A stretch of DNA of 16,499 nt from an uncultured Candidatus Bathyarchaeia archaeon (GCA_964450845.1 CAYVGZ010000022.1:1-16499); one strand, 5' to 3'. Shown: positions 8,252 through 9,939, counted from the first letter of the stretch. Made by a program: numbers and translations. Notes: generated by a model from the letters alone, not told the origin.

Positions 8252-8733
8252 AAAATATACCCATATTCAAAGAAATAAATGGAAAGATAAAAAGGGCAAG
8301 AGAAGCTCTCAAATTAATCAACTATGTAGCAGAAGATGTTTCGGCACAAGAATTCCACGATTATATGGCTGGCGAAATATTCTCTGAAGACACAACTACA
8401 CTGCAAGATGTTCTTGGCAACGAGTTTCTGATGGTACATGAACTATCAGAGATGAGCGAGCTAAAAAAGATGGGAAGAACAATTGACAAGCGAGTAATTG
8501 TAGATTCACCCAGAACTGTAATTTACGAAGCTCATTTCAAAGCTATGGAATTGGAGCTTCAATATGCCATGTTTAAGAAGGACTATTTCTGGGTTAAAGT
8601 TCGATTGAAACAGCACAAAGAAACCGTCCTAGAGGATGACCCGAACCTTCCTGAACCGCTAAGACCAAGAGGCGAGGAAATATTCCATAAATTCAGTAAC
8701 TTGGTGAAAAACCGTAATATATTATCAACATAG
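8224..8733 (+). CDS. Hypothetical protein with HExxE motif
   Basis: 169-aa ORF on the operon strand filling the gap; LMVHELSE and YEAH motifs. Start codon uncertain (TTG 8224 overlaps the KH gene). Confidence 0.65.
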   Translation: MGKTSRRKVENIPIFKEINGKIKRAREALKLINYVAEDVSAQEFHDYMAGEIFSEDTTTLQDVLGNEFLMVHELSEMSELKKMGRTIDKRVIVDSPRTVIYEAHFKAMELELQYAMFKKDYFWVKVRLKQHKETVLEDDPNLPEPLRPRGEEIFHKFSNLVKNRNILST

Positions 8734-8754
8734 CTGTATACAAAAGCATCAACG
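8734..8754 (+). repeat. 21-bp dispersed repeat, copy 1 (CTGTATACAAAAGCATCAACG)
   Basis: Exact reverse complement of 16449-16469. Begins immediately after the TAG at 8731-8733. Confidence 0.9.
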
Positions 8755-8775
8755 AAAATCCAATTTTTCGTTTCT
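8751..8775. terminator. Possible bidirectional terminator hairpin between the HExxE gene and the convergent sRNA
   Basis: AACGAAAA(8751-8758)-TCCAAT-TTTTCGTT(8765-8772) 8-bp stem with T-rich flanks on both strands. Confidence 0.4.
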
Positions 8776-8823
8776 TTCGCATGATATAATTGATAAGAAT
8801 CGATTTTCAACAATTCTAGTAAG

Positions 8824-8894
8824 TGGCGGGCTCTCCGCACTCAAGATCCCAATCATTTTGGGTTCAGCGGGGCCAGAGTCGTCATCGCCCACCA
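8824..8894 (-). ncRNA. Box C/D guide sRNA candidate, predicted Cm34 guide for tRNA-Leu(CAA)
   Basis: Minus strand reads TGGTGGGC-G-[C: ATGACGA]-CTCTGGCCCCG-[D': CTGA]-ACCCAAA-[C': ATGATTG]-GGATCTTGAGTG-[D: CGGA]-GA-GCCCGCCA. 8-bp terminal stem, 11- and 12-nt guides, TATA-like TTATTTAA about 20-27 nt upstream. Confidence 0.72.
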
Positions 8895-8911: not shown

Positions 8912-8923
8912 CTTAAATAAAAA
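8912..8923. promoter_or_regulatory. AT-rich TATA-like element shared by the divergent sRNA and UPF0282 genes
   Basis: CTTAAATAAAAA reads TTAAATAA on plus (33 nt before ATG 8953) and TTATTTAA on minus (about 20-27 nt before the sRNA 5' end). Confidence 0.45.
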
Positions 8924-8952
8924 GTTATAGCCTCCGTGAAGTATTGAAAATT

Positions 8953-9939
8953 ATGCTAAAAAACATTCAAATTTTTCCATTGGCTGCGGAAAGCTTCGGC
9001 GTAAGGTCCATGTGCACATATGTTGAAACTCCAGATGTAAGAATCCTTTTGGATGCTGGAGTTTCGCTTTGTCCAAATCGCTTCGGTTTGCCTCCACATC
9101 CGATGGAATTTAAAGCCATAGAAGAGTCTCGCAGAAAAATTGCCGCAGCCGCTGAAAAAGCCAAAATTGTAACATTGAGTCATTACCACTTCGACCATCA
9201 TACACCTTCTTATGAAGATTGGCTATGCAATTGGACGGCAGCATCGGAAACTGCAAGGCAAATCTACGATGGAAAAACTGTTCTGATAAAAAATCCAACG
9301 GACAAAATCAATTACAGCCAGAGACGCAGGGGATGGATATTTCAGAAAACTGGCGGAAGATACGCAGAAAAACTTGAAGTCGCAGACGGAAAAACCTTCA
9401 ATTTCGGAAAAGCTACAAAAGTTAGATTTTCAGAACCTGTCCCCCACGGACCTGAAAACTCAGCCCTAGGCTGGGTTCTAATGAACACTATAGAATATCA
9501 AAATGAAAAATTCATGTTTGCACCAGACATCCAAGGTCCCATGCCAAGCCACACGCTCGAGATAATCATCAGAGAAAAGCCTCAATTGATAATGATCGGC
9601 GGACCACCATCATACCTAGCTGGATTCCGGGTTGACGAGAAACAAATTCAAACTGGATTAAAGAATTTGGAGAAAGTTGTTGAGACTGTGCCATGCACTA
9701 TCTTGGAGCACCATATTTTAAGGGACGAAAATTGGCGAGAAAAAACAAAAAATGTTTTCGACAAAGCCAATAAAGCTGGATGTGAAATCATGACCGTAGC
9801 CGAGTTCTTAGGCAAACAAAACGCTTTCTTGGAAGCTGCAAGAAAAAGGCTTTTTGTTGAAAATCCTCCACCAAGAGAGTTCGAAAAATGGATGCGAGAA
9901 AGCATCGATATGAAGAAACATGTCAAGCCTCCAATTTAG
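8953..9939 (+). CDS. UPF0282 / COG2248-type metallo-beta-lactamase-fold hydrolase
   Basis: PLAAESFGVRSM, LLDAGVSL..RFGLPPHP.E, SHYHFDH metal motif, PVPHG, D.QGP, EHH..RD. Start ATG 8953 or TTG 8944. Confidence 0.85.
   Translation: MLKNIQIFPLAAESFGVRSMCTYVETPDVRILLDAGVSLCPNRFGLPPHPMEFKAIEESRRKIAAAAEKAKIVTLSHYHFDHHTPSYEDWLCNWTAASETARQIYDGKTVLIKNPTDKINYSQRRRGWIFQKTGGRYAEKLEVADGKTFNFGKATKVRFSEPVPHGPENSALGWVLMNTIEYQNEKFMFAPDIQGPMPSHTLEIIIREKPQLIMIGGPPSYLAGFRVDEKQIQTGLKNLEKVVETVPCTILEHHILRDENWREKTKNVFDKANKAGCEIMTVAEFLGKQNAFLEAARKRLFVENPPPREFEKWMRESIDMKKHVKPPI

Follow-up and report, generated by a model that had tools for sequence, protein, structure and literature searches.

A deeply conserved box C/D sRNA family of Bathyarchaeia with a predicted guide for wobble methylation of tRNA-Leu(CAA)

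Introduction

The closest described counterpart of the RNA reported here is sR47 of Pyrococcus, whose D guide was shown in vitro to direct the formation of Cm34 in tRNA-Leu(CAA). Box C/D guides for the wobble base of the Leu(CAA), Leu(UAA), Met and Trp tRNAs have been described in three Pyrococcus species, and sR47 with its in vitro methylation bears out the reference to a Pyrococcus precedent for C34 of tRNA-Leu(CAA) that was part of an initial annotation of the present locus. In Pyrobaculum, which belongs to the same phylum as the archaeon studied here, sR26 (Trp), sR27 (Gln), sR45 (Val) and sR46 (Thr) act on position 34 of single tRNAs. These sRNAs follow the same logic as the one described below, in that the anticodon-loop sequence to which one guide is directed is unique, and the other guide is usually an orphan; a guide for C34 of tRNA-Leu(CAA), however, is not listed for Pyrobaculum. 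A further arrangement is found in Haloferax, where a guide in the intron of pre-tRNA-Trp (sR50 in Pyrococcus) serves methylation of the wobble base C34 on an intron-carrying tRNA.

We analyzed a stretch of 16,499 nucleotides, referred to as the window, which corresponds to contig C22 of a Bathyarchaeia MAG (1.64 Mb in 120 contigs, 41% GC, 93.5% complete). The sRNA for which we find a gene in this window would share with sR47 the RNA class, the target tRNA, the target nucleotide and the use of the D guide, so that both would be tRNA-directed sRNAs, and the synthetic substrate used for sR47 contains CACUCAAGAUCC, the exact complement of the 12-nt guide of the window sRNA. As sR47 comes from the Thermococci, another phylum, the documented likeness is one of shared target and guide position only, and the general Pyrococcus C/D model of Rfam, snoPyro_CD, gives the window sRNA no more than 12.2 bits. 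Unlike sR47, the window sRNA has AUGACGA and CGGA instead of canonical boxes, extra bases at box D and a 7-bp terminal stem, and some of its relatives additionally feature a predicted intron or a hairpin insertion. The Haloferax system resembles the one described here in that many relatives of our archaeon have an intron in their tRNA-Leu(CAA); yet the Haloferax guide resides inside the tRNA intron, whereas the window guide is encoded by a free-standing gene and some relatives appear to carry an intron inside the guide gene itself.

The predicted function is thus known from Pyrococcus, but the family is new, deeply conserved and equipped with an atypical k-turn. For the Bathyarchaeia, an abundant uncultured group without described sRNAs, it supplies an RNA gene absent from the annotation as well as a predicted Cm34 in tRNA-Leu(CAA). 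While the copy in the window is a sound yet functionally expected finding, the relatives bearing predicted introns or hairpins are the more novel lead.

Results

An unannotated box C/D sRNA gene with its own promoter

Judged by its sequence, segment 8825-8893 on the minus strand of the window is an unannotated archaeal box C/D sRNA gene of about 69 nt. The initial annotation had proposed a box C/D sRNA with the full C-guide-D'-C'-guide-D layout at 8824-8894. Boxes, spacers, conservation and a covariance model all speak for this reading and for the layout, and the locus was placed correctly, although its extent was drawn one base too wide at either end. On the minus strand the elements follow each other in the order 5' stem, a single G, box C, D' guide, box D', loop, box C', D guide, box D, GA and 3' stem:

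8944-9939, plus strand: gene for a protein of unknown function with a metallo-beta-lactamase fold, archaeal PRK04286 family (context, not part of the RNA)
8913-8923, minus strand: TATA box UUUUUAUUUAA, centred about 25 nt upstream of the 5' stem
8887-8893, minus strand: 5' half of the terminal stem, GGUGGGC, pairing with 8825-8831
8879-8886, minus strand: G and box C, G-AUGACGA (consensus RUGAUGA; the U at k-turn position 3b is changed to C)
8868-8878, minus strand: D' guide CUCUGGCCCCG, 11 nt
8864-8867, minus strand: box D', CUGA (56 of the 82 segmented homologs have CUGA, the remainder AAGA, AUGA or other forms)
8857-8863, minus strand: variable D'-C' loop ACCCAAA, 7 nt (3-18 nt and free in sequence among homologs)
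8850-8856, minus strand: degenerate box C', AUGAUUG (of 82 homologs, 38 have AUGAUUG, 14 AUGAUUU and 9 AUGAUGA)
8838-8849, minus strand: D guide GGAUCUUGAGUG, 12 nt, bases 1-11 complementary to A31-C41 of tRNA-Leu(CAA)
8834-8837, minus strand: box D, CGGA, followed by GA (box D region CGGA-GA, 8832-8837)
8825-8831, minus strand: 3' half of the terminal stem, GCCCGCC; the covariance-model match ends at 8825

The element displays a box C/D pair predicted to form a k-turn, an internal D'/C' pair with its loop, spacers of about 12 nt and a plausible target base at position N+5 of the D guide, and the host encodes L7Ae, Nop5 and fibrillarin. Contig C106 carries the fibrillarin gene next to that for Nop5, and two genes of the L7Ae family are located on contigs C50 and C82. 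Both ends of the RNA pair in the RNAfold prediction. The spacers are almost fixed in length, with 11 nt between boxes C and D' in 80 and 12 nt between boxes C' and D in all of the 82 segmented homologs. No Rfam family reaches its gathering threshold anywhere in the window, the best scores being those of snoPyro_CD (named above) and sR1 (11.6 bits) against a cut-off of 45 each, and ARAGORN calls no tRNA within it. As our literature search also retrieved no paper on sRNAs of Bathyarchaeota, the description of this lineage as poorly catalogued was a fair one.

Upstream of the gene, the proposed TATA box is present at 8923-8913, and its TTTTTAT core is kept at a fixed distance from box C in 116 homologs. 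This near-palindromic box probably also serves the divergent gene at 8944-9939(+), which is found about 60 nt from the sRNA in most homolog loci. The genes downstream of the sRNA differ among lineages. The flanking genes, which encode a RIO1 kinase and a KH-domain protein, are archaeal.

The sRNA is conserved across the phylum and its terminal stem covaries

A search at the DNA level recovered the locus in 57 of 61 relatives belonging to the same order. An 18-mer spanning box C and the D' guide occurs in more than 100 Bathyarchaeia MAGs as well as in a handful of bacterial records, the latter without any other element of the sRNA. Hardly any change is seen in the 5' stem, box C, CUCUGGCCCC, the C' box or GAUCUUGAGU across more than 110 (about 116) distinct Bathyarchaeia homologs, while the loop is free. 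A covariance model built from 36 homolog sequences has a single match in the window genome, at 8825-8893 with 82 bits and E = 2e-21. Of 151 genomes drawn evenly from the whole phylum, other classes included, 102 contain exactly one match each. Conservation of the locus, on which the initial annotation had made its proposal depend, is therefore seen among close relatives as well as phylum-wide, and it is far wider than that of typical archaeal C/D sRNA families.

Of the outgroup matches, 21 were fetched and aligned and 20 were credible. Nearly all of these carry GAUCUUGAG in the D guide and have box D after exactly 12 nt, and their D' guides vary by class (for example CUCUAGCCCUU, GUCUGACCAGG and ACCUAUCCCUU). 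Given that the classes differ in the D' guide but share the D guide, the tRNA-Leu guide appears to be the ancient, constrained part of the RNA. That so much of the phylum has the same guide, once in each genome, further suggests that wobble methylation matters for the reading of UUG codons.

Pairing statistics were derived from the 36-sequence alignment and from an anchored segmentation of 62 simple homologs, which gave an agreeing count; the segmentation was used in place of a MAFFT alignment of all 62 simple homologs, in which the 3' stems were misplaced. In the 36-homolog alignment, 94% of the cells that belong to the 7-bp terminal stem are paired. Taking all nine pairs tested, 95% of cells are paired, compared with 23-55% when the partner strand is slid. 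Six of the seven stem pairs change on both sides within the family, which substantiates the terminal stem proposed at the outset, and none of 500 shuffles reached the observed covariation.

The D guide matches the anticodon arm of tRNA-Leu(CAA)

The complementarity of the D guide indicates that the window sRNA very probably serves as the Cm34 guide for tRNA-Leu(CAA). The 11-mer complement of the guide, ACUCAAGAUCC, occurs at three sites in the 1.64-Mb genome, one of them being the sRNA gene itself. A second site lies in the anticodon arm of the tRNA-Leu(CAA) gene at C37:10516-10601(-), where it spans exactly A31-C41 and provides 11 contiguous Watson-Crick pairs with the D guide. Counting upstream from box D, the fifth base is G8842, and its partner is C34, the first C of the CAA anticodon. 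With 11 of 12 positions matched, tRNA-Leu(CAA) is the best tRNA match in the genome, and any other called tRNA reaches at most 9. The target named in the initial annotation, C34 of tRNA-Leu(CAA), is thereby predicted from the host's own tRNA, with an exact complement and C34 at N+5. The same annotation had suggested looking for the complementary sequence after intron removal; the sequence is present, but the tRNA-Leu(CAA) gene of this genome has no intron, while those of many relatives do.

The third site is located inside a coding sequence on contig C96, in a radical-SAM-like reading frame on a contig of 51% GC, and was taken as a chance match. At this place (C96:2230-2290(-)) ACUCAAGAUCC is accompanied, 18 nt upstream, by GGGCUCUCCGC, the complement of box D and the 3' stem of the sRNA, so that 22 bases are shared in two blocks, a striking coincidence that we likewise treat as chance. 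Two further tRNA-Leu(caa) calls by ARAGORN, on contigs C5 and C7, were set aside as mis-called intron-bearing tRNAs without the target sequence.

Almost every archaeal homolog across the phylum retains GAUCUUGAG, and of the 34 tRNA-Leu(CAA) genes obtained from relatives, 33 contain the tRNA segment ACUCAAGAUC. Position 1 of the guide varies (G, A, U, C) and tracks neither C41 nor the fourth base of the intron, and is therefore probably unpaired. Otherwise guide and target are both invariant, without covariation between them, and the pairing is accordingly supported by conservation and exact fit rather than by covariation. A canonical 37/38 intron is present in 20 of the 34 tRNA genes, and 14 of these 20 introns begin with AUC. 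Where this is the case, the guide meets an uninterrupted run of at least 10 complementary bases in the precursor as well as in the spliced tRNA.

The AUC at the start of these introns repeats the start of exon 2. Several of the relatives' tRNA-Leu(CAA) genes (all at loci L204-L236) have a second, non-canonical intron in the D-loop region, and ARAGORN mis-calls these as other tRNAs.

Box C and box D are predicted to form an atypical k-turn

Box C and box D of the window sRNA each depart from the consensus at one position, and together the two changes place C-G at 3b.3n. The parts of a k-turn are present in the window copy, as GAUGACGA and CGGA(GA) supply both GA dinucleotides, GAU forms the bulge and the covarying 7-bp helix flanks the motif. 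In our reading, the CG of box D would pair with the CG of AUGA-CG-A, giving C-G at 3b.3n and G-C at 4b.4n, and one of the two GA dinucleotides in CGGA-GA would supply the sheared pairs. This pairing of CG with CG is supported by four divergent homologs that combine AUGACAG with UGGA, in which 4b.4n changes from G-C to A-U.

The 30 homologs retrieved through DNA similarity all have the same box C, and its C at 3b never varies in Bathyarchaeia sequences, most of which were found with a query containing that C. The second position of box D is G in 58 of 62 sequences (C-G at 3b.3n) and U in the remaining 4 (C.U). With box C fixed and box D divided 58 to 4 between G and U, there is no covariation at 3b.3n inside the class. 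The outgroups have the canonical combination AUGAUGA/CUGA (U.U) in 12 of 20 cases, one lineage amongst them has AUGGCAG with UG-CU-AA, and A-U, G.U and A.G occur at 3b.3n as single cases. As the outgroups are mostly canonical, the C-G of the Bathyarchaeia gives the impression of two changes that arose as a derived state. The co-varying C/D box pair put forward in the initial annotation thus finds support at the level of the phylum, where C-G stands against U.U and the adjacent 4b.4n pair covaries, but not within the Bathyarchaeia.

Box D occurs in the family as CGAGA, CGCGA, CGGGA, CGGA, CGGAGA, CGUGA, UGGA and CUGA. The number of bases between C-G/U and GA is 0, 1, 2 or 3 in 14, 36, 10 and 2 sequences, respectively, with the stem following. 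This makes the register of box D ambiguous both for the CGGA-GA of the window copy and for the modal family form CG-N-GA: the former can be read as CG, a GA bulge and GA, or as CGGA with two unpaired bases. With CG paired as in our reading, the guide abuts CG both ways, so that C34 is at N+5 in either case. In members and outgroups with CUGA or CGGA directly beside the stem, C34 falls on N+5 unambiguously.

K-turns with a Watson-Crick pair at 3b.3n do not fold in Mg2+ alone but fold upon binding of L7Ae. The complex k-turn Kt-15 of Haloarcula 23S rRNA, known from the L7Ae-bound ribosomal context, has C-G at 3b.3n like the window k-turn, and is unfolded in Mg2+ alone and bound by L7Ae; being a ribosomal element and not a C/D motif, it resembles the window k-turn by sequence rules only. 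By analogy, a k-turn of the window type should fold only with L7Ae bound. With Watson-Crick pairs at 3b.3n, 0-3 inserted bases and even a hairpin in box D, the family constitutes a natural experiment on the rules of k-turn formation.

The D' guide is nearly invariant but remains an orphan

The D' guide is the most conserved element within the class, CUCUGGCCCC being nearly invariant in Bathyarchaeia. Its target had been left unassigned in the initial annotation, and a scan of tRNAs and rRNAs brought forward no convincing one. The expected target sequence, CGGGGCCAGAG, has no other match in the genome, where there is also no one-mismatch complement of interest and no match among the tRNAs. No rRNA genes are assembled in the MAG, and in four relatives there is no consistent site in 16S or 23S rRNA. 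In two 100%-complete relatives the D' 10-mer is absent outside the sRNA gene itself.

The best candidate is UGGGGCUAGGG near position 900 of 23S rRNA (e.g. at loci L151, L303 and L305), which would pair through 8 Watson-Crick and 2 G.U pairs and is present in 9 of 17 relatives; by a rough estimate, a match of this quality arises by chance in the rRNA of roughly 1 in 14 genomes. In 3 of the 17 relatives the site contains an A that mismatches the unchanged guide. Because the guide shows no compensating change in these three, we did not accept the site as target and leave the D' guide as an orphan, with the 23S site as a weak candidate. The second guide of tRNA-directed sRNAs is usually without a known target.

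Proposed mode of action and alternative readings

We consider it likely that the window encodes an independently transcribed box C/D sRNA which guides formation of Cm34 in tRNA-Leu(CAA). L7Ae would bind the k-turn that box C (AUGACGA) makes with box D (CGGA) as well as the internal C'/D' k-loop, after which Nop5 and fibrillarin would join the complex. The 12-nt D guide would pair with the anticodon arm (A31-C41) of tRNA-Leu(CAA), and fibrillarin would methylate the 2'-OH opposite the fifth guide base upstream of box D, converting the wobble base C34 to Cm34.

A box C/D RNP could also act on a neighboring base if its functional box D were the tetramer with the GA next to the terminal stem. CG and this stem-abutting GA stand one to three bases apart in the window copy, as they do in 48 of 62 family members, and counting N+5 from the stem-side GA leads to C32 in the window copy or U33 in the modal form, not to C34. 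Methylation of C32 or U33 nevertheless strikes us as quite improbable, as the implied target would differ between close relatives despite their invariant guide, the spacing of C' and CG is 12 nt in every member, the base at this constant place takes part in the covariation of 4b.4n (G-C to A-U), and the unambiguous members and outgroups with CUGA, CGGA or UGGA give C34. It is likewise improbable that the RNA is C/D-like but acts as a non-methylating chaperone or processing aid for tRNA-Leu(CAA), or that it plays its main role through the D' guide on an unknown RNA. Such roles would account for a D' guide that is nearly invariant in the class without a convincing target, for a degenerate box D that tolerates insertions up to a whole hairpin, and for tRNA introns starting with AUC, which keep the complementarity in the precursor. 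Against them stand the retention of the D guide, and not the D' guide, across the whole phylum, the position of C34 precisely at N+5 and the catalytic activity of the same guide-target pair in Pyrococcus.

An 85-codon ORF, 8583-8840(-), starts within the element, and one might ask if a coding start, a cis-regulatory element of a neighboring gene or a chance box-like pattern has been mistaken for an RNA gene. The ORF is kept in the closest relatives only, where it mirrors the gene on the opposite strand, and has no family match, for which reasons we rejected it as a gene. The element, by contrast, is conserved phylum-wide whatever the gene downstream, has its own TATA box, shows compensatory changes in its stem and occurs as a single copy per genome, and we regard a reading without an RNA gene as scarcely credible. 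The likely reading is that of a Cm34 guide for tRNA-Leu(CAA).

Relatives carry insertions in the D guide or in box D

Some relatives of the window sRNA have insertions that the window copy itself does not have. In 15 distinct homologs from several families, an insertion of 29-52 nt is located inside the D guide, exactly between GAUCUUGAG and UGCG (for example at loci L100, L025, L047, L269 (G187:C30:6778-6882) and L255 (G052)). In 13 of the 15, CUUG of the guide pairs with CAAG at the end of the insertion to give a 4-bp helix, which is flanked by 3-nt bulges on opposite strands, AGA on one and AAU, AUU or AGU on the other. An adjoining stem of 4-10 bp inside the insertion is unrelated in sequence between homologs. 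The exon-side outer helix is absent, which corresponds to the relaxed HBh' form of the bulge-helix-bulge, and predicted cuts after the second base of each bulge would join GAUCUUGAG to UGCG and restore the consensus guide and box D. A copy with the insertion is the only copy in a genome that is 100% complete. Going by these motifs, the guide insertion is probably a tRNA-type bulge-helix-bulge intron in a C/D sRNA gene.

About 30 further homologs have a hairpin of 30-60 nt between CG and GA of box D, mostly in combination with AAGA as D' box (for example L044, L131, L123, L039 and L139). The hairpin shows compensatory changes and often has an AUGAUA-like motif in its loop. A bulge-helix-bulge intron was considered for this group too and rejected, since the two linkers lie opposite one another where the hairpin begins, and a central helix of 4 bp cannot be accommodated. 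A whole hairpin between the two halves of box D implies a three-way-junction k-turn, and the hairpin may be retained in the RNA as such a form of the C/D k-turn.

Taking both groups together, the odds are in our estimate slightly in favor of at least 15 lineages carrying a bulge-helix-bulge intron excised by tRNA splicing endonuclease together with a ligase, with the hairpin group forming a three-way-junction k-turn. In the literature we found, the substrates of the splicing endonuclease are tRNA, rRNA, a few mRNAs and SRP RNA, and C/D sRNAs are not amongst them. If the insertions are indeed spliced, box C/D sRNAs would represent a new substrate class for archaeal splicing, extending the range of the endonuclease to guide RNAs. 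The CAAG at the 3' end of the intron would then mimic the tRNA anticodon and mask the guide before splicing.

Further observations in the host genome

A stretch of about 28 nt, AACCUAUAUAUAAGGGGGCUAGAGC, is shared between C13:6060-6069(-) and C25:17165-17174(+) and looks like a repeated strong promoter. On the largest contig of the MAG (197 kb), the region C1:168700-186400 holds 16 tRNA genes within 18 kb. This cluster is unlike the scattered, intron-rich tRNA genes elsewhere in the MAG and may be due to a virus, a mobile element or wrong binning of the contig.
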